Shown here piece after piece: positions 3,424-45,863 of a stretch of 64,000 nucleotides of DNA (the stretch's first letter is position 1; every line of letters begins with the position of its first letter). Origin of the DNA: an uncultured Acidobacteriota bacterium (GTDB lineage: Bacteria > Acidobacteriota > UBA6911); assembly GCA_963843575.1 (NCBI GenBank), contig CAWJKZ010000019.1:416001-480000 (forward strand), in the 5' to 3' direction. A model generated the notes under the pieces. It saw only the letters and a program-made list of their open reading frames with translations. It had not been told where the DNA came from and made no database searches. Position numbers and translations under genes: made by a program.

Positions 3424-3530
3424 GGGGACGGACCCGGGTAAATTTTTTAAATGGAGGATGATGCGGCCAAAACACCGTCGAAAGGGCGCCTTATTTGCGT
3501 TTTTGGGACCGGTTTTTTGAAAATAAGCCG
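3424..3530 (+). repeat. ~105-bp GGGGACGGACC/CTTATTT element, copy 1
   Basis: GGGGACGGACC at 3424, then GCCTTATTTGCGTTTTTGGGACCGGTTTTTTGAAAATAAGCCG. Aligns by eye to six other copies. Confidence 0.8.
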
Positions 3531-3560
3531 ATGCCGGATGACCGGATTTCCGGCCCTCAT

Positions 3561-3665
3561 CCGCTATTTGGCAAAAACGGGGCGAAAAATCTCAAATAAG
3601 GGCTATTTTTAAGGTAAAATTCGGCATAACCTGCTGATTCGTAATAGTTAATCTAGGTCCGTCCC
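3561..3665 (-). repeat. ~105-bp GGGGACGGACC/CTTATTT element, copy 2 (inverted relative to copy 1)
   Basis: Minus strand reads GGGACGGACC..AATCAGCAGGTTA..CCCTTATTTGAGATTTTTCGCCCCGTTTTTGCCAAATAGCGG. Confidence 0.8.
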
Positions 3666-3865
3666 TGATTGCGGTTTTTCCAGGATCCGAGCAGCAGCGT
3701 GAGGAGCGCGAGTCCGATTTCATCGGCGAAGGGGATGAAGTCCGGGACCACCAAGTCGACCAGCGTGACGACCGCCAGCAGGATGAACAACCCTGGGAAT
3801 CTCAGATTGAGCCGCCCGAGGAGCCGGCCGGCGAGGGAGGTGCGCTGCACCTGATCAAGAGGCAT
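3653..3865 (-). CDS. DUF6116-like small membrane protein
   Basis: LRFP.LF....V.LVDLVVPDFIPFADEI.L.LLTLL..SWK pattern. The last codons GRT* come from element copy 2. Confidence 0.7.
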   Translation of the reverse strand: MPLDQVQRTSLAGRLLGRLNLRFPGLFILLAVVTLVDLVVPDFIPFADEIGLALLTLLLGSWKNRNQGRT

Positions 3866-3973
3866 GCCCAACTCCCGCAAGGTGGAATCCCCCGAGGAGA
3901 GGGGCCTGTCGAAGGTCGTTTCGTGCGCGGCTCCCAGCAGGCTCCCCCGATCGGGTTTGCAGCGATCGCCGCT

Positions 3974-4570
3974 TCACTGCTTGGCGGCCGCCGGCGCCTG
4001 CATTCCGAGCGCCTCCATAATCCCGACTGCCTTTTCCTTAACCGACTGTGCCTTGGCGACGGCGTCGGTGAGGTTTCCCGCACCGTATGCCGTGGTGGCG
4101 TCAGTCCAGCTTTGGGTGAGCGTCGCGAGGCTGGCTTTCGCCTCCTCAAACTTCGCCTTGTCGATGTTGGCGGGGAGCCTCCTGGATTTCGAGAGGATCC
4201 CCATTCGGCTCTGGATGGCTTCGACCATGCCGGGCAACCCGCCGCTGAGGTCGCCCCAGCTCTTCATGAGCTCGTCCTTCTTGGCTGTCGCCGCGGCGGC
4301 CAGATCCTTGATTGCGGCCGGCAATCCCTGCGCGGCGGTGAGAGCCGCCTGGTAATCGCCCTTCTTGAAATTGTCCCTGGCGTTCTGGAGCGAAGTTTCA
4401 ATGGAAGCGAGTTGATCCGGCACGAACTTGGCCGCCTCGGGGCGAGCCGCGTTCAGCGCGTCTTCCGCCGCCTTGATGGCCGCTTCCGCCGGTGCTTTGG
4501 CTGTGTTGCAGCCGACGACGGCCAGCGACAGGGCAAGTACCAGCCCTGTTACAAGCGCGAATCTTGACAT
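3974..4570 (-). CDS. Alpha-helical lipoprotein (DUF4398-like)
   Basis: Lipobox VVGC, Ala/Lys-rich helices, A.K..P..L..AR motif, RBS GGAG. Confidence 0.7.
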   Translation of the reverse strand: MSRFALVTGLVLALSLAVVGCNTAKAPAEAAIKAAEDALNAARPEAAKFVPDQLASIETSLQNARDNFKKGDYQAALTAAQGLPAAIKDLAAAATAKKDELMKSWGDLSGGLPGMVEAIQSRMGILSKSRRLPANIDKAKFEEAKASLATLTQSWTDATTAYGAGNLTDAVAKAQSVKEKAVGIMEALGMQAPAAAKQ

Positions 4571-4683
4571 GACTTTTCTCCCGTTCGGTGCCTCCAGCTA
4601 AATCCGCAATCCGCTGCCGGTCGGAAGCACGGCCTTCAGGCCTGGATTTTCCGGCCGCGATCCAACTACCGCTGCCCGGATCC

Positions 4684-4875
4684 CTACGGGATCCGGAGTT
4701 TCTGTCCGACACGGATGAGGTTCGGGTCCTTGAGCACGTCCTTGTTGGCCTCGAAGATCTGCGTGTACAAGGCGGGGTCCCCATAATAGCGTTCGGAGAT
4801 CTTGGAGAGCGTCTCACCCTCCTGCACCTCGTGCCACTGGGTGGCGTCCCACGCCTTCCCTTTTTCGTCCGCCAT
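4684..4875 (-). CDS. Stand-alone LysM domain protein
   Basis: HEVQEGETLSKIS.RYYGD...Y.QIFEANKD.LKDPNLIRVGQKLRIP. AAGGAG RBS before the ATG at 4875. Confidence 0.92.
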   Translation of the reverse strand: MADEKGKAWDATQWHEVQEGETLSKISERYYGDPALYTQIFEANKDVLKDPNLIRVGQKLRIP

Positions 4876-4971
4876 GATCGCTCCTTTGTGGTGTCGGTAT
4901 GCGCGAGTATAGACACAATCCGATCGGGTGGGGTCACATTTTCTCGATCGGAAGTCCCCAAGGAGATTGCA

Positions 4972-5065
4972 TCGAGGCGCCGCCTGCAGCAATCTTGGCG
5001 CCGAGGCGCCGGACATTCCGGCCTTTGGACGTCGGTCAAAGCGGCGCCGAGGCGCCGCACTCCAC
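4972..5065. repeat. GGAG-REP cluster, family 2
   Basis: GCGGCGCCGAGGCGCCGCACTCCA plus internal GGCGCCGAGGCGCC palindromes, same as the copies at 20.7, 36.4, 54.7 and 58.1 kb. Confidence 0.75.
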
Positions 5066-5070
5066 AATTC

Positions 5071-6757
5071 TCACCGGGCGGGGGCGGGCCGCCCCCGCCC
5101 ACTGGCCGCCTCGAGCAGGCGACGGTGCGCGGCTTCGAAACCGGTCACGGTGGCGTCGTAGTCCGTGAACCCGCGGACGACCAGGGTGCAGATCTCGTCC
5201 GCGAGCTTCGGGTCGCGCGCGGCGACCAGGCGCAACAGCTCGTAGTCCTCGATACCCGCTCCCATGGCTTCGAAGCGGACGCTGGACCAGGGGCCGTCCT
5301 TGCCGGGGTACAGGATGTGCGAGTCGCCCGGCGGAAGATGGAAGTCGTGATAGGGCCCGTGCGGGGGGCAGGTGTTCTCGAACGGGTCCTGTTCGGGAAT
5401 GACCTGGTTGAGCCCCCAGTGCAGGTAACCGTCGAGCCGGTAGCGCCAGTTGGCCCAGTGCAGCAGCCGCGTGCGCAGGAGCTCCGTGTCGATGAAGCGG
5501 TTCAGGTGGCGGCCGCTGGGGGCGCAGCAGGTGTAGAACCAGACCGAGTCGCCGCGGCGGCGGTGGGCTTCGAACGCTTCCTGCTGTTTCTCGTAGCTCT
5601 CGCTCAACGGCACCCAGATGTCGACCGCGCCGTCCAGTTCGGGGTTGCCGAGCGCGTCGATCAGCGGGACGCCCGGCAGGAACTTGCGCACGGTCCCGGC
5701 CATGATGCGATAGTCGTCGAAGTCCTTGGGCGAGGGTTCGTCCACGACGTGCTGGGTCGCGAGCCCGTACCAGCCGTTGCGCCGGAGCAGGTCGGCCCAG
5801 GCACGCAGGTATTGCGCGAGGTACTCGTACGCCTCGTGCGACGTCCCGGGTACCGGTTTTCCGTCGACGTTCACGACGAATCGGGCCACCGCGTCCTTCC
5901 GCCGGTCGTGGCTGGCGATGTGCGGGAGTTCGATGTGGGTGAAGCCCTCGCCGAGGAACATCCGGATCATCCGCTCGCTTCTCGAGAAATCGAATTCCCA
6001 CGACCCCGGCCCGGTCTTCTTCACCTCGGGCCCTGCGGGAATGAAGTCGGTCTGGCGGCCGCGCCGCATCATGCGCGCGTACTGCAGGAGCATGTCCCAA
6101 TGCTGCTGCGACCAGGGAGCCACCCCGTGCACCCGTGCCATGTGACTGGTGCTGAACCAGTTGGTTACCCGCAGGTGCCCCTGCTCGGGAACGCGGGCGG
6201 CATAGACCTTCAGTGCGACGGCGATGTCGGCCGTCCCGCTGCCGGTCTGCACCCGGAGCCGTCCCCGCAGCTGACCCGGGGCTGCGTCCGGCGGGATCCT
6301 GAACGACACGTACAGCGCCCCGGTCTCGCCGCGGGCGGGGTCGCCGTTGCGCAGCGGGCGGAGAGCTTCGAACACCCGGTATGGCGCCTTGCGGGTCACG
6401 TAATCCGGGGTCGGCTTGTCCGGCGGGATCGAGCTGCAGGGCGGGCCGGAGTTCTCCGGCACCTTCACGTCGACGAGCTGATACAGCTCCGGGGCGAGTC
6501 CGCCCTCGACGCTGCAGGAGAGACGGCTCGCCCGGCTTCAGCCCGCGCAGCAGCACCTGGAAGCCCGCGCGCCCGCCGCGCGCCGCGTGCAGCTCCACCG
6601 AGCGAACCGGCGCTGCCGGGATCGGAGTGTCCGGATACAGCCACTCGTTGGCGCTCGCGGCGTGGTACTGGAGCGATTGGGTGAAGGCGAAAGTGCCCGA
6701 ACACAACAGCGCGAGCGGCAGCAACGCGCAGAGGGGCAACCAGCGGCGACAGGTCAT
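5071..6757 (-). CDS. DUF4091-containing glycoside hydrolase-like protein (GH123-like); frameshift near 6480-6530
   Basis: Signal peptide in one frame. VVDEP, WFYTCC.P...NRFID, GYLHWG.N, PPGD..ILYPG, SSVRFE....GIEDYELL in a second frame. Confidence 0.8.
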
Positions 6758-6823
6758 GGCGTCCTCCCTTGTCTCGTGCGTGATCGTAATCCGAGGGGGC
6801 CCGCAGCGCAAGCCGTCAGAACC

Positions 6824-6860
6824 CACCTCGAAGTCTCGAACGACTCGAAGAGTCTCGAAG
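6824..6860. repeat. CTCGAAG micro-array (also 10584-10620 and 45955-45980)
   Basis: CACCTCGAAGTCTCGAACGACTCGAAGAGTCTCGAAG is nearly identical to CACCTCGAAGCCTCGAAGGACTCGAAGGGTCTCAAAG at 10584. Confidence 0.75.
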
Positions 6861-6863
6861 GTC

Positions 6864-7127
6864 TCAGTGCAGGAGGGCGATCGAGCTGGTGAAGGCCACG
6901 GCCAGATAGAATGTGCCGAGGCCCAGGGCGAGGGCCGTCTCCAGCCACTCGGGCCAGAGTGTCAAGGGAGGGCGCCGGGGCTGCTGTTCGCGCCGTTGCG
7001 CGGCGAGGGCGGCCAGGCAGCGGGCGCGGGTGCGCTCGACCCTTCGCGGATCGGCGTCGTGCGTGCGCAACACGCCAAGAACTTCCTCCAACCTATCCCA
7101 AGGTTCCCGCATGGTCATCCCCCTCAT
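6864..7127 (-). CDS. Small membrane protein, putative anti-sigma factor
   Basis: ATGA overlap with the stop of the ECF sigma gene, and a single C-terminal TM helix. Confidence 0.6.
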   Translation of the reverse strand: MRGMTMREPWDRLEEVLGVLRTHDADPRRVERTRARCLAALAAQRREQQPRRPPLTLWPEWLETALALGLGTFYLAVAFTSSIALLH

Positions 7128-7696
7128 CCCGCTTTCGCCTGCATCGTCGCCGCCTCCGCGTCCATTTCGAGCGCCAGCCTGCGGCGCGCCCGCTCGAGCC
7201 GCTTGCGCACGGCCTCGGGTTCCAGGCCGAGCGAGGCGGCTGCCTCGGAGGGCGTCAACCCCGCGGTCCCGACCAGCAACAGCACTTCGCGGTCGTGCAG
7301 CGACAGGCGGGCGAGCGCGGCTTCCAGGCGCCGCTCGGTCTCGGTGCGCGCGGCTGCTTCGAACGGGGATTCGCCGGGGGCCGCGGGCCAGGCGGGCGTC
7401 AGTTCCGAGAGCCGCTCGGCATCGACGGCCCGGTGGCGGCACCAGCTCGCGTGCAGGTTGCGGGCCACGGTAAAAAGCCACGCCCCCAAAGACGTGTCGT
7501 CGGAGAGGTTCTTCGCGCAAGCCACCAGCCGCAGCCACGTCTCCTCGAGCAGGTCCTCGGCAACGTCGCGGCGGCGGCTGAGGCGCACGAGAAAACTGAA
7601 CAGGCGCGGACGGAACGCGGCGTACGCCGCCTCAAACGCGGCGTCGTCGCCGGCCTTGAGGCCGGCCACAACCCGCAGCTCGATTTCCCGTTCCAT
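7124..7696 (-). CDS. ECF RNA polymerase sigma-70 factor
   Basis: AEDLLEETW, AWLFTVARN (region 2) and L..L...REVLLL....GL...EAA..LG..PEAVRKRL.RAR (region 4). Confidence 0.93.
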   Translation of the reverse strand: MEREIELRVVAGLKAGDDAAFEAAYAAFRPRLFSFLVRLSRRRDVAEDLLEETWLRLVACAKNLSDDTSLGAWLFTVARNLHASWCRHRAVDAERLSELTPAWPAAPGESPFEAAARTETERRLEAALARLSLHDREVLLLVGTAGLTPSEAAASLGLEPEAVRKRLERARRRLALEMDAEAATMQAKAG

Positions 7697-7705
7697 AACC
7701 TTTAC

Positions 7706-7760
7706 AACGCGCGAGTCCGGCGAGCGTGACCCCCGGTCACGCTGCGGCGCGGCGCGCGTT
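7706..7760. promoter_or_regulatory. Back-to-back putative ECF promoters GGTCACG-N15-CGTT
   Basis: The same bipartite motif occurs on the minus strand (7731-7706, towards the sigma gene) and the plus strand (7735-7760, towards the 7794 gene). Confidence 0.65.
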
Positions 7761-7793
7761 TCCATTGTCGACAATAATACAAAGGAGGCTCAC

Positions 7794-8138
7794 ATGCCCG
7801 GACCATTCTTCTGGTTTGTCGTGTTGGTCGGCCTCGCCACCCTGGCGGCGGCCGTCTATTTCGCATTCCGTCCCTCGGAGCGAACACTGGCGGTGCTCCG
7901 GCCGCTGGGCGCCGCCACGACCTATTCGTCGCTGGCGGCCTTCCTGCTCGGGGTGGCCAACGGCCTGACCGGTCTCAACCGCAGCCTCGAGCGCGCCGCC
8001 GACCCCGCGGCCTCGGCCCAGGCCTGGCGCACGTTCATTTCCGGACTGGCCGAGTCGCCGGCGCCCCTTGTCCTGGCCTTTGCGATCCTGGCCGTCACGT
8101 GGCTGCTCGTCGCCGTGGGATTGCGCCGGCAGGCTTGA
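7794..8138 (+). CDS. Small three-TM membrane protein, likely ECF target
   Basis: AAGGAGG RBS, ATG at 7794, three hydrophobic segments, divergent from the ECF sigma gene. Confidence 0.8.
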   Translation: MPGPFFWFVVLVGLATLAAAVYFAFRPSERTLAVLRPLGAATTYSSLAAFLLGVANGLTGLNRSLERAADPAASAQAWRTFISGLAESPAPLVLAFAILAVTWLLVAVGLRRQA

Positions 8139-8146
8139 GCACGCAT

Positions 8147-8230
8147 GTGGGCCGCGGCGGCTCGACGCGGCCCACATGCTTCCGTCGTTGTTGGTCATTC
8201 GCAGGGCGGGGGCGGGCCGCCCCCGCCCAC
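8147..8230. repeat. GTGGG-footed GC-rich palindromes (related copies near 640, 5076, 37657, 42521, 47720)
   Basis: GTGGGCCGCGGCGGCTCGACGCGGCCCAC and GGGCGGGGGCGGGCCGCCCCCGCCCAC recur in several intergenic gaps. Confidence 0.6.
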
Positions 8231-8300
8231 GCTCTTGACAGCTTCGACGCCGGGGCTAGAATGAGCAGGCATCCACCTGCGACCCAGAGAGGAGAAGGGC

Positions 8301-9377
8301 ATGGGAATCTTCGACTTCATCAAAGGCGAACTGATCGACATCATCGAGTGGACCGACGACTCGCGCGACACCCTCTCGTACCGCTTCCCGGACGAAGACA
8401 AGGCCATCAAGAACGGCGCTCAGCTGATCGTGCGCGAATCCCAGATCGTGCAGTTCCTGTACCTGGGAGAGTTCGGCGACACCTTCGGGCCCGGCAAACA
8501 CACGCTGACGACCGACAACATCCCGGTCCTCACCCGCCTGAAGTCGTGGAAGTACGGTTTCGAGTCCCCCTTCAAGGCGGATGTCTACTACATCAGCACC
8601 CGCCTGTTCACGGGCAACAAGTGGGGGACGGCGAATCCGATCATGATGCGAGACGAAGACTTCGGCATCGTGCGCGCCCGCGCCTTCGGGACCTTCGATT
8701 TCAAAATCGTCGACCCGAAGCTGTTCCTCAAAGAGGTGGCCGGGTCGGACCAGAATTTCCGCCTCGACGAGTTCGCCGACACAATGAGGTCGCGCATCGT
8801 CAGCGTGTTCAGCGACGCGCTGGCCTCCGCGCGGATCCCGGTGCTCGATGTGGCCAGCCGGTACACCGAGCTGGGGGAGGCGCTCCTGCCGCTCATCAAC
8901 CCGGTCGTGAACGCGAAGTACGGCCTCCACATCAGCAGCTTCATCGTCGAGAACGTCTCGGTGCCGCCCGAAGTCGAGCAGGCGATCGACAAGCGTTCGA
9001 GCATGGCCGCCGTCGGCAACCTGAACGACTTCGTGAAATACCAGATGGGCAAAGGGATGGAGACCGGAGGAGGCGGCGGTGCGGCCGGGACGGCCAGCGA
9101 GCTGGCCGTCGGCTTTGCCATAGCCCAGCAGCTCATGCAGCAGACGCCTATCCTCGGGACGCCTCAGCCTGCGGGCGCGGGCGCGGCCGCCGCGGCGCCG
9201 GCGGCGCCGGCTGCCCCGGCGGTCGAACTGCTCGCCCCCGCCGACGTGGCGAAGATCCTGAACGTGCCCGAGGGCGACGTGATGGCCCTGATCCAATCCG
9301 GCGAGCTCAAGGCCAAGAAGATCGGCTCCAGCTTCCGCATCGCGCGCGCCGCGCTGGACGCCTATCTTGCCTCCTGA
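8301..9377 (+). CDS. SPFH-domain (YdjI-like) protein with C-terminal excisionase-type HTH
   Basis: IDIIEW, IKNGAQLIVRESQ, WKYGFESPFKADVY, KWGT.NP; tail LL...DVAKIL.V....V..LI.SGELKA.KIG.SFRI. Confidence 0.88.
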   Translation: MGIFDFIKGELIDIIEWTDDSRDTLSYRFPDEDKAIKNGAQLIVRESQIVQFLYLGEFGDTFGPGKHTLTTDNIPVLTRLKSWKYGFESPFKADVYYISTRLFTGNKWGTANPIMMRDEDFGIVRARAFGTFDFKIVDPKLFLKEVAGSDQNFRLDEFADTMRSRIVSVFSDALASARIPVLDVASRYTELGEALLPLINPVVNAKYGLHISSFIVENVSVPPEVEQAIDKRSSMAAVGNLNDFVKYQMGKGMETGGGGGAAGTASELAVGFAIAQQLMQQTPILGTPQPAGAGAAAAAPAAPAAPAVELLAPADVAKILNVPEGDVMALIQSGELKAKKIGSSFRIARAALDAYLAS

Positions 9378-9393
9378 AGCCCCGAAACCGCAC

Positions 9394-10488
9394 ATGGGCG
9401 AAATCTCCGCACTGGAAAAACACCCGTGCCCCGCCTGCGGCGCCCAGGCGGAGTGGAGCGCCGGTAAGCAGCGGCTCGTGTGCTCGTTCTGCGGCACCGA
9501 AAGCCCGTTCGAGGTCGACCGCAGCACCGGCGTGATCCAGGAAATCGACCTCGTCAAGACCCTGCGCGAGCTCCCCGAGGAGCTGCGCGGCTGGCAGGAG
9601 GAGCGTCGCAGCGTCCAGTGCCGGAGCTGCAAGGCCGTCATGGTGTTCGACCCGAAGCGGGTCGGGCAGAACTGCGAGTTCTGCGGCGCGCCCGCCCTGG
9701 TCGACTACAACGAGGTGAAGGCGCCCATCCGCCCGCAGAGCCTCCTCCCGTTCCGGGTGAGCCAGGCCCAGGTGCGCGAGAGCATCCGGAGCTGGTATGC
9801 GGGGAAGTGGTTCGCCCCCGGCGCACTCAAGCGGCGGGCGCTCGTCGACACCGTCCACGGCGTCTACGTGCCCTACTGGACATTCGACGCGAAGGTCCGC
9901 TGCCCCTGGGAAGCCGAGGCCGGCCACTATTACTACGTGACCGAGGAATTCCGCGATCAGCAGGGACGGACCCAGCTGCGGCAGGTCCAGCGCGTCCGCT
10001 GGGAGGCCGCGGCCGGCGAGATCGAGCACTTTTTCGACGACGAGCCGGTCCCCGGAACCCAGGGAATCGACGCCGGGCTCCTGAAGTCCATCGAGCCGTT
10101 CCCGACCGCGGAACTCGTCCCCTACGACACGGCCTACCTGTCGGGGTTCGTGGTGGAACACTACCAGGTCGTTCTGCTCGACGCGGCCAAGAGGTCGCAG
10201 GATTCCATGCACGGGCAGCTGATGGAGTTGTGCGCGGCACAGGTTCCCGGCGACACCCACCGCAACCTGCGGATCCGCCCGCAGTATTCCGGCCAGACCT
10301 TCAAGCACATCCTGGTCCCCGTGTGGCTCCTGACCTACACCTTCGGGTCGAAGGTCTACCAGGTGCTCGTCAACGGCTACACCGGGAAAATGGCCGGCGC
10401 CTACCCCAAGAGCGTCTGGAAAATCCTTGCGGCCGTCGCCGTGATCCTGATCGCCCTGGCCCTCTTCCTCTTCTGGGGACGGACCTAA
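9394..10488 (+). CDS. Double zinc-ribbon membrane-anchored protein (SPFH partner)
   Basis: CPACGA..CSFCG, CRSCKA..CEFCG, YVPYWTFD, FKHILVPVW, VNG.TG.M.G.YP.S and a C-terminal TM helix. Confidence 0.85.
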   Translation: MGEISALEKHPCPACGAQAEWSAGKQRLVCSFCGTESPFEVDRSTGVIQEIDLVKTLRELPEELRGWQEERRSVQCRSCKAVMVFDPKRVGQNCEFCGAPALVDYNEVKAPIRPQSLLPFRVSQAQVRESIRSWYAGKWFAPGALKRRALVDTVHGVYVPYWTFDAKVRCPWEAEAGHYYYVTEEFRDQQGRTQLRQVQRVRWEAAAGEIEHFFDDEPVPGTQGIDAGLLKSIEPFPTAELVPYDTAYLSGFVVEHYQVVLLDAAKRSQDSMHGQLMELCAAQVPGDTHRNLRIRPQYSGQTFKHILVPVWLLTYTFGSKVYQVLVNGYTGKMAGAYPKSVWKILAAVAVILIALALFLFWGRT

Positions 10489-10573
10489 TTCCTATTAGTA
10501 ATTTGCGGGAGTTTTCGCCTCAAAATGGCGCCTTATTTTGCGTTTTGAGGGCCGTTTTTTGAGATTAAGGCCG
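10475..10573 (+). repeat. ~105-bp GGGGACGGACC/CTTATTT element, copy 3
   Basis: GGGGACGGACCTAA supplies the last codons and stop of the zinc-ribbon gene, followed by GCCTTATTTTGCGTTTTGAGGGCCGTTTTTTGAGATTAAGGCCG. Confidence 0.8.
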
Positions 10574-13600: not shown

Positions 13601-13950
13601 GACTCCTGGGTCAGGAGGAATTGCGCCGCGGAATCGCGCAGCATGAACCGCAGCCGCTCGGCCGGATAGCCGGTGTTGAGCGGCAGGTACGCACCCCCGG
13701 CCTTGAGGATGCCTATCATGCTGATCAACATGGGCAACCCGCGCTCCATGCAGATCGCGACGAACCGATCGGGCCCCACCCCCTGCTTTTGCAGAAACCG
13801 CGCCAGCCGGTTCGAACAAGCCTCCAGCTCCCCATAGCTGATGGACTCCCCCCCGCACACCGCCGCAACACTGGGGACGGACCAGGGCAACTGGTGATCA
13901 ATCAGCAAGTTATGGAATTTATTGCCCGAAAAAGGGGCCTTATTTCGCAT
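10615..13950 (-). CDS. Stand-alone NRPS-like protein, A-A-T architecture
   Basis: Two adenylation domains (YTSGSTGNPKG / YTSGSSGKPKG, YRSGD / YRTGD, NKVDR / NGKIDR) and one carrier domain (FFELGGDS). No C or TE domain. Confidence 0.9.
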   Translation of the reverse strand: MRNKAPFSGNKFHNLLIDHQLPWSVPSVAAVCGGESISYGELEACSNRLARFLQKQGVGPDRFVAICMERGLPMLISMIGILKAGGAYLPLNTGYPAERLRFMLRDSAAQFLLTQESLVEAIPAGNARVFTFESLALEEQSAEPCGSAADPDSLMYLLYTSGSTGNPKGVEVTRAGVSNVLAWAGRTLGFSSRDVMPALSTLSFDIATLELLLPLCYGGRVVIVDSRSARDPRRLGDTFAAARPTVIQATPATWSMLVDAGWQGDAELQIISGGDVLSPALASALQRRCRRLWNWYGPTEASIYSHGCLVEDTDGPIPIGRPVDNTRSYILDEDGAAVAPGAIGEICLSGVGVARGYLNEPQLTAERFYADPFNPGQRMYRSGDLGRCRADGQVEFLGRADLQLKIRGFRIEPGEVEAALKQHPGVRDAVVVARPGAGGSPTLTACLVAGDQPLSASELRGFLAARLPTHAIPSWYEELPSFPLTPSNKVDRRALSQGAAGSRRPVEERQRSITAAEADLILNRWNDTGAPLPAASVDLLFERHAARQPEHPAILWANERISYSALNEQANGLARRLGSAGAGRGSRIALLLKHSPAYLRAVLGVLKTGGVYVPIPADYPAERIAFMLEDSGAEFVLTEREWLDKLPRTRSSTLLVGDWTASAGTQEKNPAREVSLDDPALILYTSGSSGKPKGVLLPHRSILRLASNANFLAPSAEDVVSHFSNIGFAIAIFEVWIALASGATLAILPQETAVRPLECRRAYERYGVSLAFLTTSLFNLAAQECPDMFGGVRCVCFGGEKADPDAVSRVLQRGKPERLINVYGCTETSSIVSFYDIPAGLAPTPHVPIGRPASNAVIYIVDDSLRLVPIGMTGEIVVGGPCLADGYVNRTELTADRFVPDPFGQSGARLYRTGDRGFFLPNGNLVCLGRADSQVTIHGYRVELGEIEAALLSVPGVRHGAVVLQSGGRGRDVVAFWVPQPGHEDADPKPALRRTLPDYMIPGSVVRLASLPLNPNGKIDRPALAAYPVRQERRQARAPRTPLETRITALFQEVLEAPGVGMDESFFELGGDSVSAIRLITRIERDFGVALSVEAVLDNDTPAALLSILNL

Positions 13951-13980
13951 TTTTGCTGCCGTTTTTCTCGACTAAGCACC
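13873..13980 (+). repeat. ~105-bp GGGGACGGACC/CTTATTT element, copy 4
   Basis: GGGGACGGACC..AATCAGCAAGTTA..GGGGCCTTATTTCGCATTTTTGCTGCCGTTTTTCTCGACTAAGC. Overlaps the first 26 codons of the NRPS ORF. Confidence 0.8.
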
Positions 13981-32924: not shown

Positions 32925-33032
32925 CGGCCTTAATCGCAGAAAATGGCCCCGAAAACACGAAATAAGGGTCATTTTCCCCTCTATTTTCGCGGCATCTTAT
33001 TGAGGGGTATAGGCTTCTCCTGGTCCGTCCCC
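32925..33032 (-). repeat. ~105-bp GGGGACGGACC/CTTATTT element, copy 5
   Basis: Minus strand reads GGGGACGGACC (first G shared with the TonB receptor TAG)..CCCTTATTTCGTGTTTTCGGGGCCATTTTCTGCGATTAAGGCCG. Confidence 0.8.
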
Positions 33033-38769: not shown

Positions 38770-38969
38770 CTCGAACCCCCTTTCCTGGCTGTGGAGATCG
38801 CCGGTTCCAGAGAGGCAAACCGTGGACCCGCCCTATCCATCGTCCGGTGCAAGACGTAAGTGCCGCTTGCGCAACGAAGATCGCCCCGGTAACCACAGGG
38901 TGCGCATGTACCTCCCGGGATGTGCGATTTGGCGCATGTCGAATGGATTGGCGTGCGCCTGTCAGTGCT

Positions 38970-39199
38970 CAAGTGGGTCCGGGCTTCAGAGGCTGTCCAA
39001 CGGTTGAACCGCCCGCCCCACCCGCAAAACAAGTGGATCCGGGCTTCAGAGGCTGTCCAACGGTTGAACCACCCGCCCTACCCGCAAAACAAGTGGGTCC
39101 GGGCTTCAGCCCGGACGCCGTTTGCTGTCGCTATGCAGGTCAGCTGGAACTCTATGGAACGGATTTAAAGACGTCCGGGCTTCAGCCCGGACCCACTTG
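38970..39199. repeat. GTGG-REP cluster: two 60-bp half-REP units plus one doublet
   Basis: CAAGTGG at 38970, 39030 and 39090. The unit GAGGCTGTCCAACG.TTGAACC.CCCGCCC..CCCGCAAAA also occurs at 50.8-50.9 kb. Confidence 0.85.
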
Positions 39200-39294
39200 T
39201 TTTACGGGCCCTGCCGGATTGTGGCCCGTGGTGGCGTCGAGCCGCCGCACTCCAGACACTTGATTCCGGGGGTGGGGTGCTTTAGGCTCGGTCC

Positions 39295-40311: not shown

Positions 40312-41372
40312 CCGCGACCATGCGAGGAGCATACCTGCCGGGGGACAGCACGACGACGTTGAAGGAGGTGCCCGTCCCCGAGCCGGGCCACGGTGAGGTG
40401 CTCCTGCGGATGAAGGCCTCCACGATATGCGGCTCCGACATCCGGTGCATCTACCACGAACACCTCGGCAAGGGCCCCGAAGGGTACCAGGGCGTGATCG
40501 CCGGCCACGAGCCCTGCGGCCAGATCGTGAAGACGGGGCCGGGCTGCCGGCGCTTCGGCGCCGGCGACCGCGTGATCGTCTACCACATCTCCGGCTGCGG
40601 CGTCTGCAACGACTGCCGGCGCGGCTACATGATTTCCTGCACGAGCGAGAAGTACCGGCGCGCCTACGGCTGGCAGCGCGACGGCGGCATGGCCGACTAC
40701 CTCCTCGCCGAGGAGAAAGACCTCGTCTTCCTGCCGGACGAGCTGTCCTACGCCGACGGCGCGCAGGTCGCCTGCGGCTTCGGGACCGTCTACGAGGGGC
40801 TGGTCAAGGTCGGCATCAGCGGCCAGGACGCCGTGCTCGTGACGGGCCTCGGCCCCGTCGGGCTCGCCACCGCGGCCCTCTGCCGCAAGCTCGGCTCGAA
40901 CCGCATCATCGGGATCGAGCCCGTCGAAGAGCGCCGGAAACTGGCCGCCGAACTGCTGCTCTGCGACGAGGTGCTCGCCGCCGGCCCGGACAACGTCGCG
41001 GAGGTGAGGCGGCTGACGGCCGGCCGCGGGGTCGAGCGCGCCATCGACTGCTCCGCCAACCCTGCGGCACGCGCCACAGCGATCCGGGCCACCCGCAAGT
41101 GGGGCAAGATCGTCTTCCTGGGGGAGGGCGGCAGGGTGGAGTTCGACCCGTCGCCCGACATCATCCACGATCAGAAATCCATCTACGGCTCCTGGGTCAC
41201 CTCCACGTGGCTCATGGAGGAACTCGTGGAGCGGCTCGTGCGCTGGAACCTGCACCCGGCGGACCTCGTCACCCATCGGTTCGAGCTCGGCCGGGTCGCC
41301 GACGCTTACGCGCTCATGGCGTCGGCCAGGTGCGGCAAGGTCGCGGTGTGCTTCGACGAGGAGCTGATATGA
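40308..41372 (+). CDS. Zinc-binding (sugar) alcohol dehydrogenase
   Basis: ICGSD, GHE, C..C..C..G...C and G.GPVG. ATGA-coupled to the AKR gene. Confidence 0.93.
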   Translation: MTATMRGAYLPGDSTTTLKEVPVPEPGHGEVLLRMKASTICGSDIRCIYHEHLGKGPEGYQGVIAGHEPCGQIVKTGPGCRRFGAGDRVIVYHISGCGVCNDCRRGYMISCTSEKYRRAYGWQRDGGMADYLLAEEKDLVFLPDELSYADGAQVACGFGTVYEGLVKVGISGQDAVLVTGLGPVGLATAALCRKLGSNRIIGIEPVEERRKLAAELLLCDEVLAAGPDNVAEVRRLTAGRGVERAIDCSANPAARATAIRATRKWGKIVFLGEGGRVEFDPSPDIIHDQKSIYGSWVTSTWLMEELVERLVRWNLHPADLVTHRFELGRVADAYALMASARCGKVAVCFDEELI

Positions 41373-41389
41373 AAATCTCCATTCCAGGA

Positions 41390-41478
41390 CGCGGATTTGC
41401 GCTGTGATCCGCGTCAATCCGTCAAATCCGCGAAGATCCGTGTTCCGCTTTTGTTTTTGTCTCTCCTGGCCGGTCAAG
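41390..41478. repeat. ~9-nt periodic element, inverted copy of 15386-15458
   Basis: GATCCGCGTCAATCCGTCAAATCCGCGAAGATCCGTGTTCCGCTTTTGTT.TTGTCTCTCCTGGCCGGTCAAG. Confidence 0.8.
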
Positions 41479-42481
41479 GCCGGACAACGTCGATTACCGC
41501 CGCCTTAGCCAGGAACGACTTGCGGAGCTTGGCCACCACGGTGAAGTGCGGGTCGACGATGTTCGCGACGTCGTATTGGAGCGCGTGGCCCATCAGCAGC
41601 GACGAGCCCCTCTCGTCGAAACCGTAGTCCGCCATCAGCCACGCCTGCATCTCGGTCGTAGCGTGCTGCAGGGCCTCCAGCAGGGGTCTCGCGCTGCCCA
41701 GGACCATGATGTACTCCGAACTCTCCGCGCGCGGCCAGTTGATCGTTTTCCCCTTGATCAAGTCGACGCTGAACTCGACCTCCATGGAGGTCTCGAGCGC
41801 GTTGCCGATCGTCTCGCCGTCGCCCTGCGCGGCGTGCCCGTCGCCGACAAACAGCAGGGCGCCGGGCTCGAACACCGGGAGCATCAGGGTCACCCCGGCC
41901 GTCATGCCGTTGTAGTCCATGTTCCCGCCGAACGCGTCCGGGGTGCTGGTGGCCACCGCTTCCTTGCGGTCCGGCGCCGTCGCCACACAGCCCAGCATCG
42001 GCCTGAGCGGGATCTCGATCCGGCCGGGGCGGAAGCCGGCGGATTCGAGGTAGGCGATCCCCTTCTTCTTGTCTATCGTCCAGGTCTGGTCCTGCTGCTC
42101 CCGCAAGGCGGTCGAGCGGAGGAAAGCCGGGTCGACGGCATAGGGCGCGAGCAGGCTGCCGGACCAGGCGGTGTCCCTGTTCGGCTCGATCCTATCGAAC
42201 CGGACGACCAGCACGTCTCCGCGCGCGGCGCCCTCGACGAAAAAGGGCCCCGTCTGCGGATTCGGCCGCTCGGCGATTTTCTTGCCCTGGGCATCGAATC
42301 CCCAGGCATCGACGGTCCGGGTGATCACCCTGTCTCCGGCCTTGATGCGCAGCACCGGCCGGTGCGCCCCGGAAAAGGTGTTGTGGTACTCCTTCGGGTC
42401 GAAGCGGTGCGTTTCGGCCTGGGCGAGCAGCGGGACCGCGAGCAGCACGGCGGCGATGGCTGCGATCGATGTGAGCGTCAC
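41474..42481 (-). CDS. Acetamidase/formamidase family protein
   Basis: TGPF.VEGA..GD.L, GGNMD, GD.HA.QGDGE..G.ALE. Confidence 0.92.
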   Translation of the reverse strand: MTLTSIAAIAAVLLAVPLLAQAETHRFDPKEYHNTFSGAHRPVLRIKAGDRVITRTVDAWGFDAQGKKIAERPNPQTGPFFVEGAARGDVLVVRFDRIEPNRDTAWSGSLLAPYAVDPAFLRSTALREQQDQTWTIDKKKGIAYLESAGFRPGRIEIPLRPMLGCVATAPDRKEAVATSTPDAFGGNMDYNGMTAGVTLMLPVFEPGALLFVGDGHAAQGDGETIGNALETSMEVEFSVDLIKGKTINWPRAESSEYIMVLGSARPLLEALQHATTEMQAWLMADYGFDERGSSLLMGHALQYDVANIVDPHFTVVAKLRKSFLAKAAVIDVVRP

Positions 42482-42554
42482 GTGGAACCTCCCTTATAAC
42501 GTGTGTCAGTGTGCGCCAGTGAGCCGCGTCGAGCCGACGCGGCCCCCCCCCAGA

Positions 42555-43367
42555 TCACAGGTCACGGCGGGCGAGCTGGAGCGCTCCCACGGCGATCCCG
42601 GCAACCGCCGCGCAGGCCAGGATGAGCAGGTCGCGCGCGGGCGGAGCCGCGCCCGCGATGATGGACGCCGTCGTGTAGTAGTGGAAGGGCGACAGCCACG
42701 CGACGCGGCTCGCCGGCCGCCACACCCCGGCCAGGTAGTCCACGACATAGCTCGAGAACGCCAGGAGGCCGGCGATCAGGGCGGGCGTGCTGCGCCGGCG
42801 CGCGAACGAGGTCAGCGCGAAGGCGACGGCTCCCCAGCAGAACACGAGGACGGCGAGGTTCGACGCCAGCCGGCAGGCGGTCGTGAAAATCTGGCCGGCG
42901 TCGTCGCGGGCCAGCCAGTAGGCCCCCACCAGCGTGCCTGCCAGCATCGCGCCGATCAGCACGACGGTGCAGCCGGCCAGCAGGGCGGCCGTGCGCAGCG
43001 TCAGCGACAAGCGCGTGACCGGGTGGGCCAGCACGAGGTCCAGGAAGCCGCTTTCGATTTCCGAGGCGGCCTCGGTGGCGACCGCCACCGCGACCCCGAC
43101 GAGCACCGCGACGACCGCCATGTGGAAGTACCCGATCGATATCACCCCCGCAAACGACATGACCGAGATCGCCGCAGGGCCCAACGCCTGGCGCACGAAG
43201 TCCGGCATCAGGGTCGCTATCCGGCCGAACAGGTCGGATTCCTGGATGGCCTTGGCCGCGAGCGCCAGCAGCAGCTGAAAGCCGGCGAGCACCGCGCCGA
43301 ACGCCAGCACCAGGGGGCGGAAGCGCCGGGCCGAGTGCGCCAGGAGCGCGAGGGTGCGGCTCAGCAT
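42555..43367 (-). CDS. ABC-2 type permease
   Basis: Six TM segments, EIE.G.LDLVLA.PV.R and LSPFHYY. Confidence 0.85.
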   Translation of the reverse strand: MLSRTLALLAHSARRFRPLVLAFGAVLAGFQLLLALAAKAIQESDLFGRIATLMPDFVRQALGPAAISVMSFAGVISIGYFHMAVVAVLVGVAVAVATEAASEIESGFLDLVLAHPVTRLSLTLRTAALLAGCTVVLIGAMLAGTLVGAYWLARDDAGQIFTTACRLASNLAVLVFCWGAVAFALTSFARRRSTPALIAGLLAFSSYVVDYLAGVWRPASRVAWLSPFHYYTTASIIAGAAPPARDLLILACAAVAGIAVGALQLARRDL

Positions 43368-44302
43368 GAGCCCTCCCGGTAGTAGCGCATGACGACGTCC
43401 TCCAGGCGCGGCTCGGAGACTTCCAGGTCGGCCACCGGGAGCCCGGCCAGGCGCCCGACCAGCGCGCCCATCGGGCCCGCGACCTGCAGCGACCAGGAGC
43501 GCGGCTCGACCCCGACGATCCGGTAGCCGGAAGGTAGGTCTCCCGGACCCCCGGGAACCTCCGCCGCGAAGCGCACCCGCACGGACCGGGGCGCCAGCGA
43601 ACGCAGATGGTCCACCGTGGAGAGAAGAGCCAGCGACCCGTTGCGGATGAGGGCGACCCGGCCGCACACGCGCTCGACCTCCGAGAGCACGTGCGAGGAG
43701 AGAAAGACCGTCCTGCCTCGGGCCTTGAGCCCCGACAGGATCTCGTAGAAGGACTCCTGCACCAAAGGGTCCAGCCCCTCGGTGGGCTCGTCCAGGACCA
43801 GGAGCGAGGGATCGGACTGCAGCGCCTGCAGCAGCCCGAGCTTGCGCTTCATCCCGGAGCTGTAGTCGCGCAGCCTCCGTTTCAGGTCCGCGTCGGGGAG
43901 CGCCAGGCGGGACTGGAGCTCCGCACGATAGCCGGGGCGGACGGGGCTGCCGGCGAGCCGGGCCGCGAGCTCGAGCACGCGCCGGCCCGTCATGTCCCCG
44001 TACAGCCGCTGTTCGCCCGGCAGATAGCCGATTTGTGCCCGGACCTCGCGGCCGTGGCGCCGGCAATCCAGCCCGAACACGGCGGCGCTGCCGGAGCTGG
44101 GCCGCACGAGGTCCAGCAGGATCCGGATCGTGGTAGTCTTCCCAGCCCCGTTCAGCCCCAGAAACCCAAACACCTCCCCCGCCGGCACCTCAAACGACAA
44201 CCCGGCCAACGCGACGACCCGCCCATACCTCTTCCCCACCCCCCTCACCGCAATAGAGGGGACGGACCCGGATAAACTGTTTGTTTCTAGCAGCTTACTC
44301 AA
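43361..44302 (-). CDS. ABC transporter ATP-binding protein (start uncertain: TTG 44302 inside element copy 6, or GTG 44248)
   Basis: GLNGAGKTT, YSSGMKRK, LDEPTEGLDP and FLSSH. Confidence 0.92.
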   Translation of the reverse strand: MSKLLETNSLSGSVPSIAVRGVGKRYGRVVALAGLSFEVPAGEVFGFLGLNGAGKTTTIRILLDLVRPSSGSAAVFGLDCRRHGREVRAQIGYLPGEQRLYGDMTGRRVLELAARLAGSPVRPGYRAELQSRLALPDADLKRRLRDYSSGMKRKLGLLQALQSDPSLLVLDEPTEGLDPLVQESFYEILSGLKARGRTVFLSSHVLSEVERVCGRVALIRNGSLALLSTVDHLRSLAPRSVRVRFAAEVPGGPGDLPSGYRIVGVEPRSWSLQVAGPMGALVGRLAGLPVADLEVSEPRLEDVVMRYYREGSC

Positions 44303-44362
44303 ATTTTCGCCCTCGGAGGGGCTTATTTGCGATTTTGGGCCCTCTGTTCTGCAATTAAGGGC
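44258..44362 (+). repeat. ~105-bp GGGGACGGACC/CTTATTT element, copy 6
   Basis: GGGGACGGACCCGGATAAACTGTTTG..GGGGCTTATTTGCGATTTTGGGCCCTCTGTTCTGCAATTAAGGGC. Confidence 0.8.
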
Positions 44363-44407
44363 TTGGGAAGCCCAAGCCCTTTTTCCCTCTCTGGGGCTGC
44401 GAACCGA

Positions 44408-45742
44408 TCAGGCTGCGGGAGCGGTGGGGACCACTTCCTGTCTGCGGGGGTCCCAGTAGAGGACGCGGCCTTCGCGGTACGCCTGGACGGACATGGAGAT
44501 GGTGACCTGGACGTGGAAGGCGGTTTCGACGTCCAGGGTCGGTTTCCCGCGCGACCGCATGCAGTCCAGGAAATTCGACATGTGCCAGATATCGACCTTC
44601 TCCAGCGTGTCTTCGACGGGGACTACGGTCTCCGTGCTCCCGAATTTCGCTTTGTAGGCGTCGTCGATGGCTTCGACTTCCGGGGCGAGGGTGATGTGGT
44701 GGTTGGGGGCGTCCTCAAACATGCCGCCGTCGACCATGATGATGGTCCCGAGCCGGCCGCGGATCATGCCGGGGATGTGGCGCGAGTTGACCATAGTGGA
44801 GCTGAGGACGAGCGAGTGTTTGCCGGGGAACTCGGCCAGGACGTTGAAGGTGTCCGGCACCTCGCGCTTCTCCTCGGAGGCCGGGCCGCCGTAGATCCCG
44901 CCGCTCGACACGACCCTCGACGGGAATTCGGGATTGGGCCAGCAGATGTTGAGCGGGGCGACGACGTGGAAGAACAGGTCGGTGGCGATGCCGCCGGAGT
45001 AGTCCCAGTACTTGCGGAACCGGAAGAAGCGGTCGGCGTCGTAGGGGCGCTTGGTTGCGGGGCCCAGCCAGACGTCCCAGTCGATGTGGTCGTCCCCCTT
45101 CGCATCCGGGCCCGCATTAGGGTCGATGCGGTAGTTCCACTCGCCGCGCGGCGAGTTGCGGTGGTAGGAGCCCTGGCTCATGACGATGGGCCCGATCGCC
45201 CCGTCGGCGATGTACTTGTGGGTCAAGTGCCAATGGGTGGCCGAAGTGGTCTGGGAGCCGACCTGGATCACGCGCTTCAGCTCCTTCGCCTTCGCCACGA
45301 CCTGTTTGGCTTCCGCGATGGTGTGGGTCATGGGTTTCTCGAGGTACACGTCCTTGCCCCGTTCCATGGCCTCGATGGCGATGCGGGCGTGCCAGTGGTC
45401 GGGGGTGGCCACGACCACGGCGTCGATGTCGGGACGGGCGAGCACCTCGCGGTAGTCCGTGTAGGAGTCGCACTTGTACTGTTCGGCGTACCTTCTCTTG
45501 CGCCTCTCGTACACGTCGCAGACGGCCACGAGCTTCGCGCGGGAAGGCTCGCTGACCTTGACGACCGTGCCGGTATTGAACGAACCGCGCATGCCGAGGC
45601 CGATCACGGCGACGTTGATCCGGTCGTTGGCGCCGATAACCCTGCCCTGCGACACGGCCGACTGCGCCCTGGGCTTGCCGGCCGCGACGCCGGCCGTCAG
45701 GCCGACCGCAGCCGCGCCCTTCAAGAAATCTCTCCTCTTCAT
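44408..45742 (-). CDS. Tat-exported Gfo/Idh/MocA oxidoreductase
   Basis: KRRDFL, GANDRIN...IG.G.RG, ATPDHWH and DVYLEKP. Confidence 0.93.
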   Translation of the reverse strand: MKRRDFLKGAAAVGLTAGVAAGKPRAQSAVSQGRVIGANDRINVAVIGLGMRGSFNTGTVVKVSEPSRAKLVAVCDVYERRKRRYAEQYKCDSYTDYREVLARPDIDAVVVATPDHWHARIAIEAMERGKDVYLEKPMTHTIAEAKQVVAKAKELKRVIQVGSQTTSATHWHLTHKYIADGAIGPIVMSQGSYHRNSPRGEWNYRIDPNAGPDAKGDDHIDWDVWLGPATKRPYDADRFFRFRKYWDYSGGIATDLFFHVVAPLNICWPNPEFPSRVVSSGGIYGGPASEEKREVPDTFNVLAEFPGKHSLVLSSTMVNSRHIPGMIRGRLGTIIMVDGGMFEDAPNHHITLAPEVEAIDDAYKAKFGSTETVVPVEDTLEKVDIWHMSNFLDCMRSRGKPTLDVETAFHVQVTISMSVQAYREGRVLYWDPRRQEVVPTAPAA

Positions 45743-45755
45743 CTGCACTCCTTTC

Positions 45756-45863
45756 GGGGACGGACCCGGAAAAGCTGTTTACTCTCTTTTAATTGCAGTC
45801 ATTTTAGCCCCCGGGAAGGGCCTTATTTCGCGTTTTTGGGGCACTTTTTTCGAAATAAGGCCC
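45756..45863 (+). repeat. ~105-bp GGGGACGGACC/CTTATTT element, copy 7
   Basis: GGGGACGGACCCGGAAAAGCTGTTT..GGGCCTTATTTCG-CGTTTTTGGGGCACTTTTTT-CGAAATAAGGCCC, with a perfect 13-bp inverted repeat. Confidence 0.82.

Follow-up and report, generated by a model that had tools for sequence, protein, structure and literature searches.

Few parts of bacterial genomes are understood as poorly as their small dispersed repeats, and in the Acidobacteriota, a dominant phylum of soil, next to nothing is known of them, to our knowledge. The family of repeats described here comes from a 64-kb stretch of DNA of an uncultured Acidobacteriota bacterium (contig CAWJKZ010000019.1, positions 416,001 to 480,000; hereafter, the window), where seven copies of a common sequence of ~105 nt, each headed by the exact 10-mer GGGACGGACC, are found at the ends of unrelated genes. 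Small dispersed non-autonomous repeats are already known as a kind, but the combination of features encountered here is unlike that of the known families, and the copies represent a previously undescribed, lineage-restricted family of ~105-bp polar non-coding DNA elements that lack a gene of their own. The name of each copy gives its strand and, as read on that strand, the first base of the 10-mer. The DNA covered by the analysis consists of the 64 kb of the source genome together with 36 kb of a related metagenome-assembled genome (MAG); genes were called from frames rich in GC at the third codon position and checked with Pfam, and distances to gene boundaries were curated by hand.

The first two copies of the window lie tail-to-tail as a pair. 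Copy 3425+ (3424..3529, with the 10-mer at 3425-3434; nhmmer E 6.3e-25) points its G-rich end towards the start side of a minus-strand DUF1579 gene (2742-3374, or to an ATG at ~3340), leaving 84 nt between the G end and the ATG and a promoter-like site, TTGACG-17-TACGGT, in between, just outside the end. Its partner, 3665- (3561..3665; E 1.2e-23), carries the box AATCAGCAGGTTA, and its G-rich end overlaps the 3′ end of a minus-strand DUF6116 gene (3653-3880), to which it gives the protein ending ...QGRT and a TAG stop (3653-3655). The ~30-nt spacer between the two tails contains a terminator-like GC hairpin (3528..3545) with AAATAAG to one side of it and the complement of this word to the other, and the spacer folds with -23.0 kcal/mol (z -2.9). 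Copy 10476+ (10475..10572; E 1.4e-22), whose internal spacer is 9 nt shorter, provides a plus-strand zinc-ribbon gene (9367-10488) with a terminal GRT and its TAA stop (10486-10488), while its tail lies ~35 nt from the stop of a convergent adenylation gene. This gene, a minus-strand open reading frame (ORF) for an adenylation/peptidyl carrier protein (PCP) protein (10615-13950), runs at its 5′ end into the G-rich end of copy 13874+ (13873..13979; E 1.3e-26), which carries the box AATCAGCAAGTTA. Copy 33031- (32926..33032; E 1.5e-25) adjoins the minus-strand gene of a TonB-type outer-membrane receptor (33032-36319), whose TAG stop directly precedes the element and has one G, at 33032, in common with it. 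The G-rich end of copy 44259+ (44258..44362; E 9.6e-24) again lies inside the 5′ end of an ORF, this time a minus-strand ABC ATPase (43361-44302), and a GC hairpin of 11 perfect base pairs followed by TTTTT (44357..44381) overlaps the last bases of the copy's tail box; the hairpin sits between the copy and the stop (44408) of the upstream oxidoreductase gene, and its segment folds with -31.2 kcal/mol (z -2.7). Finally, copy 45757+ (45756..45862; E 4.1e-26), whose inverted repeat is the family's best (GGCCTTATTTCG / CGAAATAAGGCC), ends 14 nt before the ATG of that same minus-strand gene, a twin-arginine translocation (TAT)-signal GFO/IDH/MocA oxidoreductase (44408-45748), and directly abuts its AAGGAG.

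A first-pass annotation of this DNA had placed seven copies at these positions and on these strands, and both the 10-mer count and the nhmmer profile bear it out for every one. Its particulars at the gene ends also proved accurate, namely the GRT-plus-stop ending shared by two unrelated genes, the receptor stop that borrows a G from the element, the apparent N-termini of the adenylation and ABC ATPase ORFs within copies 13874+ and 44259+, and the ribosome-binding site beside the last copy. As a separate observation, a 39-nt repeat of CTCGAAG-type heptads occurs at 6825-6863, 10585-10623 and 45945-45983, and two of the three lie just past the tails of copies 10476+ and 45757+. The repeats at 6825 and 45945 end one base before the ends of long minus-strand frames (6864 and 45984; neither is supported by Pfam), and the one at 10585 overlaps the stop of the adenylation gene (10615).

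The family stands out clearly from its sequence background. The exact 10-mer occurs nine times in the window, against an average of 0.46 and at most two occurrences per shuffle in 100 dinucleotide-preserving shuffles; at one mismatch, its count (16 vs 13.4 expected) is at chance level, so the signal is carried by the exact word. Seven of the nine occurrences head the common ~105-nt sequence, and a nhmmer profile built from these seven copies recovers all of them (E 1.3e-26 to 1.4e-22), the next match having an E-value of 1.2. The G-rich end had been claimed to be invariant, and the 10-mer is indeed exact in all seven window copies. Moreover, a second word, CCTTATTT, is present seven times against an expectation of 0.27, every time inside a copy. 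The copies form AT-rich islands with a GC content of ~0.52-0.58 in 200-nt windows, in a stretch that elsewhere is mostly at 0.60-0.75. The two remaining exact 10-mers, 9963-9972 and 27247-27256 (both plus strand), lie inside coding sequence, in the zinc-ribbon gene and in the gene of an MlaF-type ATPase, respectively, without the rest of the element.

Relatives were sought with a pattern consisting of the 10-mer, N40-70 and CTTATTT-N4-TTTT, which was scanned against one representative genome each of 185,579 species, the window's own genome evidently not being among them. The scan gave 11 loci, i.e., nine loci with ten matches in a single genome and two single matches elsewhere. The carrier genome is a MAG, that of uncultured Acidobacteriota bacterium isolate MFD00905.bin.2.153, and the profile found 12 copies in its nine loci, two of which the strict pattern had missed. 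The single matches, in a Lachnospiraceae MAG and a Bacillus sp., were taken as chance, with the profile giving no match for the former and an E-value of 0.85 for the latter; the Bacillus match (L011 20-86, at the start of its contig) contains two inverted GGACGGACC words 40 nt apart. The flanks of the MAG loci gave no blastn match to the window, nor did tblastx reveal homologues of the window's element-flanking genes in them, so that the two genomes carry the family at different loci. Occurrence in only one other genome, and at non-orthologous loci, fits mobile DNA. No sequence match was obtained by blastn in the plasmid and phage collections, and the proteins of the window are closest to those of Acidobacteriota, with Vicinamibacterales-named entries among the close matches. 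In the literature on MITEs (miniature transposable elements with inverted repeats), repetitive extragenic palindromic (REP) sequences, integrons, and repeats of Acidobacteria or Vicinamibacteria, no description of the 105-bp element was found. The search for relatives suggested in the first-pass annotation has brought a second Acidobacteriota genome with 12 non-orthologous copies into the family, the ground covered being the window, the nine MAG loci and, by pattern, the representative genomes.

Alignment of the seven window copies with the 12 copies of the second genome (19 in total) reveals a common layout held by sequences that are otherwise rather dissimilar, as pairwise identity over the whole unit is only 42-68%, with means of 59% in the window, 53% in the MAG and 54% between the genomes. 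Positions 1-10, (G)GGGACGGACC, are exact in 19/19 copies, it being understood that the invariance of the 10-mer and of CTTATTT in ten of the 12 MAG copies is imposed by the search pattern; the two MAG copies found by the profile alone have the exact 10-mer but CTTAATC or CTTATTC in place of the second word. The 10-mer is followed by YRRnnAA at positions 11-17 and, in 8/19 copies, by a CAR-N4-TTR box at position 30/31. The full consensus of an integration host factor (IHF)-type site, WATCAR-N4-TTR at position 27, is present in two of the 19, copies 3665- and 13874+, and these are exactly the two for which it had been claimed. With a consensus match in 2/19 and a looser core in 8/19, this box is a candidate IHF-type site.

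Between the position-30 box and CCTTATTT, there is an A-rich stretch and then GGGCC. The word CCTTATTT starts 55 nt after the 10-mer in 12/19 copies and 53-56 nt after it in 18/19, the exception being copy 10476+ at 46 nt; because the search pattern allowed gaps of 40-70 nt, this constant spacing is no artefact of the search. In the window copies alone, the gap between the 10-mer and CTTATTT is 55 nt in five of seven, 53 nt in one and 46 nt in one. Consequently, the 45-55 nt of variable spacer given in the first-pass annotation are variable in sequence, as stated, but more constant in length. A T run sits at +10/11 after the C of CTTATTT in 18/19 copies and a further run at +23/24 in 16/19 (of T in 13 copies, of A in three), where the earlier statement had T-tracts roughly one helical turn apart. 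The distal box, A(A/T)TAAG(G), is the inverted partner of CCTTATT. Five of the seven window copies fit the form previously given for it, (A/G)A(A/T)TAAG, exactly, while 3665- (AAATAGC) and 13874+ (GACTAAG) deviate. The inverted, putatively protein-binding repeat is well kept in the window but in only about half of the MAG copies. The sequence between the boxes is close to random. Several genes in the 45.9-54.7 kb region of the window are split across frames, and possible indel errors of the assembly could also have altered the lengths of T runs.

Far from lying at random with respect to gene ends, the copies turn their G-rich end towards a coding boundary in 19/19 cases, nine at stops and ten on start sides, as the association with gene boundaries noted at the outset would have it. 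The stop-side copies all lie in the sense direction (3665-, 10476+ and 33031- in the window; L004, L005, L006, L008 2001+, L010 1829+ and L010 2081- among the numbered loci of the MAG), and in all nine the stop lies no more than 5 nt ahead of the 10-mer and no further in than position 35 of the element. The start-side copies of the window are 45757+, 3425+, 13874+ and 44259+, while those of the MAG (L001, L003, L007, L002 2231-, L002 2001+ and L008 2249-) lie 17-49 nt from an ATG, with the call for L002 2001+ being made without a family-supported gene. Among solo copies, the G end is closer to the coding boundary than the tail is in 10/11 (medians 0 vs 120 nt; sign test p 0.012). In addition, all four adjacent pairs (3425+/3665- and those at L002, L008 and L010, with total lengths of 241, 231, 250 and 253 bp, respectively) are arranged tail-to-tail with their G ends outward, a pattern with a probability of about 0.004 by chance. 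Another small repeat of the window also abuts stop codons, and close packing at gene ends is therefore in part characteristic of this genome.

The 10-mer end is the point at which the element joins unrelated host DNA, either at the ends of genes or a few codons inside them. The zinc-ribbon protein, for example, ends in ...ILIALALFLFWGRT (...LFLFWGRT), of which GRT and the stop are encoded by the 10-mer together with the three bases after it. A terminal GRT is present in 0/120 of the protein's best homologues, and the other three members of its 90%-identity cluster end in ...LLALLQRSP or ...LFALLQRGQ; the absence of GRT from these cluster mates indicates that the last ~6 residues were replaced after the split from relatives that are ~93% identical. 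By this protein comparison, the joint has replaced gene termini at least once recently. In the unrelated DUF6116 gene, with its QGRT-stop ending, the 10-mer is read in the same frame, and in the MAG four ORFs extend into the 10-mer and terminate within 35 nt, with the endings GRTRRTPLN, DGPE, DGPR and DGPSEAFPRQ.

Joints on the start side tell a similar story. The called ABC ATPase ORF encodes 313 amino acids (aa) from a TTG start inside copy 44259+ and is identical to a database protein from the same contig. Its first 15 residues, MSKLLETNSLSGSVP, are encoded by the element and occur in no other of 120 matches, and a native-looking SIAVRGVGKRYG follows them directly; homologues have M, 2-12 variable residues and then PAI(A/S)(V/I)R..KRYG. 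In the adenylation protein, the Pfam AMP-binding match begins at residue 28, which corresponds to profile position 12, just past the element, and the 26 element-encoded residues add nothing to the AMP-binding score (95.2 vs 95.5 bits). A missing N-terminal piece of this protein was not found beyond the tail of copy 13874+, so a simple insertion splitting the gene does not account for the joint. Some further observations on this protein can be added. Its element-encoded N-terminus (13874-13950, minus strand; ...APFSGNKFHNLLIDHQLPWSVP) is loosely like the usual start of a nonribosomal peptide synthetase (NRPS) adenylation domain (...IHELFEEQ..TPDA), and BLAST alignments reach residues 2-12 in 25 of the listed matches, where Pfam gives no score; this is unexplained. 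The same HNLLI-coding 15-mer found in this N-terminus (13874+) is also present in copy 3665-. The protein possesses two AMP-binding regions and a PCP domain without a condensation domain, and its best homologues (48-50% identical) are NRPSs of 1,500-1,900 aa with condensation domains.

The two oxidoreductase paralogues of the window (44408-45748 and 49340-50761) were also compared as a possible view of an empty site, but their homology starts ~90 nt inside the gene, and the comparison is for that reason uninformative. Outside the G end, CCGCAA is found at -9/-11 in three of the seven window copies and in 0/12 MAG copies (uncorrected P ~1e-6, post hoc). Among the outer flanks 3380-3424, 13830-13873, 44215-44258 and 3666-3680, three have CCGCAA and the fourth CGTCAA; a C7 run follows 8-15 nt farther from the element in three of these flanks, and two of the CCGCAA flanks are native-looking coding sequence in the same frame (SVPS[VI]A[AV]). 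The motif may reflect either a target preference or chance, and the overall likeness of the outward flanks among copies is not above that of shuffles.

Searches for an enzyme, an RNA, or a coding function within the family were largely negative. No transposase, recombinase, integrase or Y1/HUH domain was detected in 45+27+11 ORF queries of the window or in 30 ORFs of the nine MAG loci, nor was an autonomous element with the same ends and a transposase found in the window or these loci. Since no enzyme was seen beside any copy, any enzyme must act in trans. Rfam 15 gave no match at the gathering threshold, and its five weak matches (E <= 1) overlap no copy; no tRNA was found. RNAalifold returned no consensus structure on the seven copies, and none on the 19 for either strand (-1.54 and -0.17 kcal/mol, with two invariant pairs each). 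A stem of 3-6 bp precedes CTTATTT in ~14/19 copies (0 to -8.3 kcal/mol; -3.6 or stronger in 14/19). It was considered as a conserved feature and rejected: native arms compared with cross-paired ones gave p 0.087, there was no covariation, and paired cells made up 63.2% as opposed to 60.9% in shuffles, with 157/500 shuffles as high. The stem is thus explained by composition rather than covariation. A terminator scan of 3000-15000 called none of the three copies in this interval except by way of the pair-spacer hairpin, and no sigma-70-type promoter was called there in the three copies scanned. Reading by eye for sigma-54, extracytoplasmic function (ECF) sigma factor and Bacteroidetes-type motifs yielded nothing consistent. 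Hairpins after the tail are in clear excess over shuffles only at the pair and at copy 44259+ (z -2.6 to -2.9), with L002 2231- reaching z -2.2, and are lacking at most copies.

The element is accordingly not an RNA, not an ORF, and not a GC-rich REP hairpin. The alternative of a structured RNA gene, or of a small protein gene for a peptide ...ALFxIFGPVF, is hardly credible. It has some appeal in that the seven window copies keep the TTA-TTT frame open along the whole tail, with an end at the TGA, TAA or TAG of the distal box and with changes that look conservative (V/I/L, F). In 7/19 copies, however, this frame has no start codon upstream of the LF motif, and in four of them it opens at a stop just 1-5 codons upstream; ...VF gives way to ENxx or RKSN in three copies, and the frame of 5/19 copies runs on past the distal box. 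The RNA version is at odds with the absence of a consensus structure on either strand and of any Rfam match.

Comparison with known systems places the family near several of them and, by their testable defining features, within none. Correia repeat enclosed elements (CREE) of Neisseria have a TA duplication and near-identical copies. They are the closest in behaviour, being small (~100-150 bp), non-coding and dispersed, with locations at gene boundaries and an IHF-type box, while the present element lacks a terminal inverted repeat and a flanking duplication and has copies that are 42-68% identical. CREE are described as binding IHF, as able to create promoters at their ends, and as having terminal inverted repeats and a conserved core (PMC2649163), and reviews treat them as small gene-boundary elements that affect neighbouring genes (PMC2229807, PMC3184786). 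No member of the present family was found in the pattern scan of Neisseria representatives. The standard form of a MITE was considered and rejected, as the unit has no inverted termini and no target duplication, inverted ends being present only in the four pairs.

Mycobacterial interspersed repetitive units (MIRU) are tandem direct repeats inside operons, and rickettsial RPEs are palindromic and lie in-frame inside genes. Both are like the present element in giving or overlapping stop or start codons and terminal residues of their neighbours, and differ from it in that it is single, polar and located at gene ends. The outside end of IS10 and the ends of gamma-delta, lambda attL/attR, Mu and Tn7 have a fixed terminus, an IHF-type box ~30 bp inside, and phased boxes within ~100 bp, and a pair of IHF-using transposon ends inverted relative to each other forms a minimal mobile unit. 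Such transposon ends and attachment (att) sites appear to be closest in layout; the present element differs in that its copies are dispersed without a body or an enzyme between or beside them, and it has no target duplication, no symmetric core and no match in the plasmid and phage collections. Integron attC sites measure 57-141 bp. They resemble the element as short sites that abut the ends of ORFs, often with a stop codon, and that are diverse in sequence with a constant layout. On the other hand, RYYYAAC / GTTRRRY boxes are found near the ends of 0/19 copies, there is no end-to-end inverted symmetry, and the window copies are oriented +,-,+,+,-,+,+ at spacings of 0.24-19 kb, with no integrase domain in the scanned ORFs. 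Integron attC sites are treated in PMC8352920.

As for the REP sequences, bacterial interspersed mosaic elements (BIMEs) and REPINs, the likeness lies in an extragenic location near gene ends, in the inverted doublets, and in the reverse complement of the 10-mer, which contains CGTC. REPs are palindromic hairpins of 20-40 bp, whereas the present element has neither a palindrome nor a conserved hairpin, and the arms of its pairs are not complementary beyond the common boxes. CGTC- and GTAG-tagged REPs are known families, and RPEs are CGTC-tagged, according to PMC3733652. The element had been described as unlike the GC-rich REP hairpins of the window, and this view is upheld by its want of a palindrome and of a consensus structure on either strand. 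Moreover, the MAG loci carry the element without the REP families of the window.

These REP families, and some other features of the window, can be briefly described. The abundant family CAAGTGGGTCCGGGCTTCAGCCCGGACG is of the true CGTC type, its reverse complement having CGTC at the start and a CCA tail at the end; it occurs at 506, 23782, 25841, 25926, 39087, 50794, 50933 and 60300 and in an array at 61.3-62.5 kb, often as ~110-nt inverted doublets with an AT-rich linker, and short-blast gave 31 matches to it in the window and none in the nine MAG loci. A second family of GC-rich intergenic hairpins, AGCGGCGCCGAGGCGCCGCACTCCA, is found at 5040, 20789, 36504, 39230, 47051 and 54784, with inverted partners at 36371, 54708, 58058 and 58181, and a third, GGGCGGGGGCGGGCCGCCCCCGCCC, at 640, 5076 and 8204. 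The tandem array spans 61190-62611 (1.4 kb) without a long ORF and consists of two neighbouring sets, one with 8.1 copies at a period of 94 nt and the other with 7.4 copies at 98 nt; its unit combines a REP-type hairpin, GTCCGGGC-loop-GCCCGGAC, with an AT-rich linker (GC ~0.53-0.56), and because it has no variable spacers it is not CRISPR-like. Several reading frames are interrupted. A second receptor with CarboxypepD_reg and OMP_b-brl_4 domains (TonB-type; 51239-54704) is broken up into four or more frames, whose matches to the profile cover 1-188, 251-326, 337-380 and 687-793, and represents either a pseudogene or assembly indels. The inverted TAT-signal oxidoreductase paralogues at 49340-50761 and 44408-45748 are 72% identical over ~1.1 kb, the copy at 49340 being interrupted at 50329/50330, and the ORF at 45984-47040, with a signal peptide and no family, changes frame.

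It is tempting to suggest that the family consists of non-autonomous DNA elements that are acted on in trans and joined to host DNA at the 10-mer, a reading that we prefer tentatively, giving it a little less than even weight. The boxes (CCTTATTT, its inverted partner AATAAGG, and the two phased T runs between them) would then be sites for a transposase or site-specific recombinase encoded in trans, with an IHF/HU-type bending protein on the CAR-N4-TTR box at position 30, and the bound proteins would position the catalytic site at the invariant 10-mer for the cutting and joining of strands. The 231-253-bp tail-to-tail pairs would represent complete two-ended mini-elements and the solo copies single ends, and copies would persist only where the joint spares gene function, i.e., at gene boundaries, where some of them would now give their neighbours stop codons, start codons or terminal residues. 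The suggestion of the first-pass annotation, that this is a recombination or insertion site or else a non-autonomous element, stands as regards a real joint, the lack of an enzyme alongside and the narrow range; as to the process, the element may undergo transposition or site-specific recombination or, at present, neither. Several results weigh against such an element. None of its units has a terminal inverted repeat (the best inverted match of the first 25 nt is 11-15/25 in the 19 copies), and no direct repeat of >=3 bp flanks the four pairs, which have only 2-bp matches there. The arms of the pairs are 47-58% alike, i.e., no more than any two copies, and evidence of presence and absence comes from protein termini only, with no empty site seen at the DNA level. 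The 10-mer owes part of its invariance to the search pattern, as mentioned above. No near-identical copies exist among the 19 sampled, so the sample gives no view of recent transposition from a master copy; nor did the profile find a diverged or decayed copy with a mutated 10-mer in the 64-kb window, the next match having only E 1.2. Together with the random-looking spacers, the lack of decayed copies points to selection on each resident copy, which would not be predicted for a purely selfish element. Alternatively, the family may be large and diverse, with only 19 of its members sampled.

Selection of this kind would be at home in a host cis-acting module, spread long ago and kept by the host as a phase-locked binding platform that is polar at gene ends, where a nucleoid-associated, roadblock or insulator protein, for example, might stop transcription entering from the G-rich side. 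We regard such a module, the main rival of the preferred reading, as unlikely, albeit deserving of serious attention. It is favoured by the 10-mer, intact in 19/19 copies, by rigid spacing combined with near-random spacers, by the lack of decayed copies, and by the occurrence of CCTTATTT nowhere else in the window. All nine copies after stop codons lie in the sense direction and the tail never faces a gene start closer than ~290 nt, an arrangement that a polar terminator or insulator would tolerate, and AATAAG-flanked GC hairpins are present at the pair spacer and after copy 44259+. These hairpins after the tail are not general, however, the small hairpin inside the element is weak and without covariation, and the three copies scanned have no sigma-70-type promoter. 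The element also intrudes into coding sequence and takes the place of native termini, unlike a conserved regulatory region, and its extremely narrow distribution and non-orthologous positions in two genomes count against such a role. It is also conceivable, with a good deal less probability, that the copies are att-type sites of a gene-shuffling system, in which a recombinase encoded elsewhere would exchange strands within the 10-mer, assisted by the IHF-type bend and the arm-type boxes, so that genes or blocks bounded by G ends could be inverted, excised and re-inserted; this would be a chromosomal system of a new kind in Acidobacteriota, functionally like integron cassettes or lambda att sites, with an unrelated site. 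A site that travels with its cassette would explain why copies share the core and the box layout only. With a layout that seems to resemble that of lambda attL (a core, an IHF-type box ~30 bp in, and repeated boxes to ~100 bp), the element has an invariant core at one end and an arm kept in layout rather than in sequence; coding ends lie against the core as the ORFs of integron cassettes do against attC. The copies 10476+/13874+ and 44259+/45757+ delimit direct element-gene-element units of one gene each, and the blocks 3666-10475 and 33032-44258 are bounded by inward-facing G ends. Yet the ORFs scanned include no recombinase, the 10-mer has no flanking inverted half-sites of the core type, the outward flanks are not significantly alike apart from the post-hoc CCGCAA motif, and two isolated 10-mers lie inside genes rather than at block boundaries. 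The zinc-ribbon gene, situated beside an SPFH gene, is widely conserved and not accessory, and the mixed orientations and kilobase spacing are unlike those of integron arrays.

Whatever acts on it, the family combines features in a way that known families do not, with an invariant end, boxes phase-locked over 105 bp, near-random spacers, no inverted termini, and a strict polarity towards gene ends. It also has an effect on annotation, since gene callers start the ABC ATPase and the adenylation protein inside the element, and the last residues and stops of other genes are supplied by it. Should a protein that acts on it in trans be found, the element would represent either a novel means by which short DNA is moved or a recombination site of a new kind; binding by a protein of the host would instead make it a new control element of gene ends.

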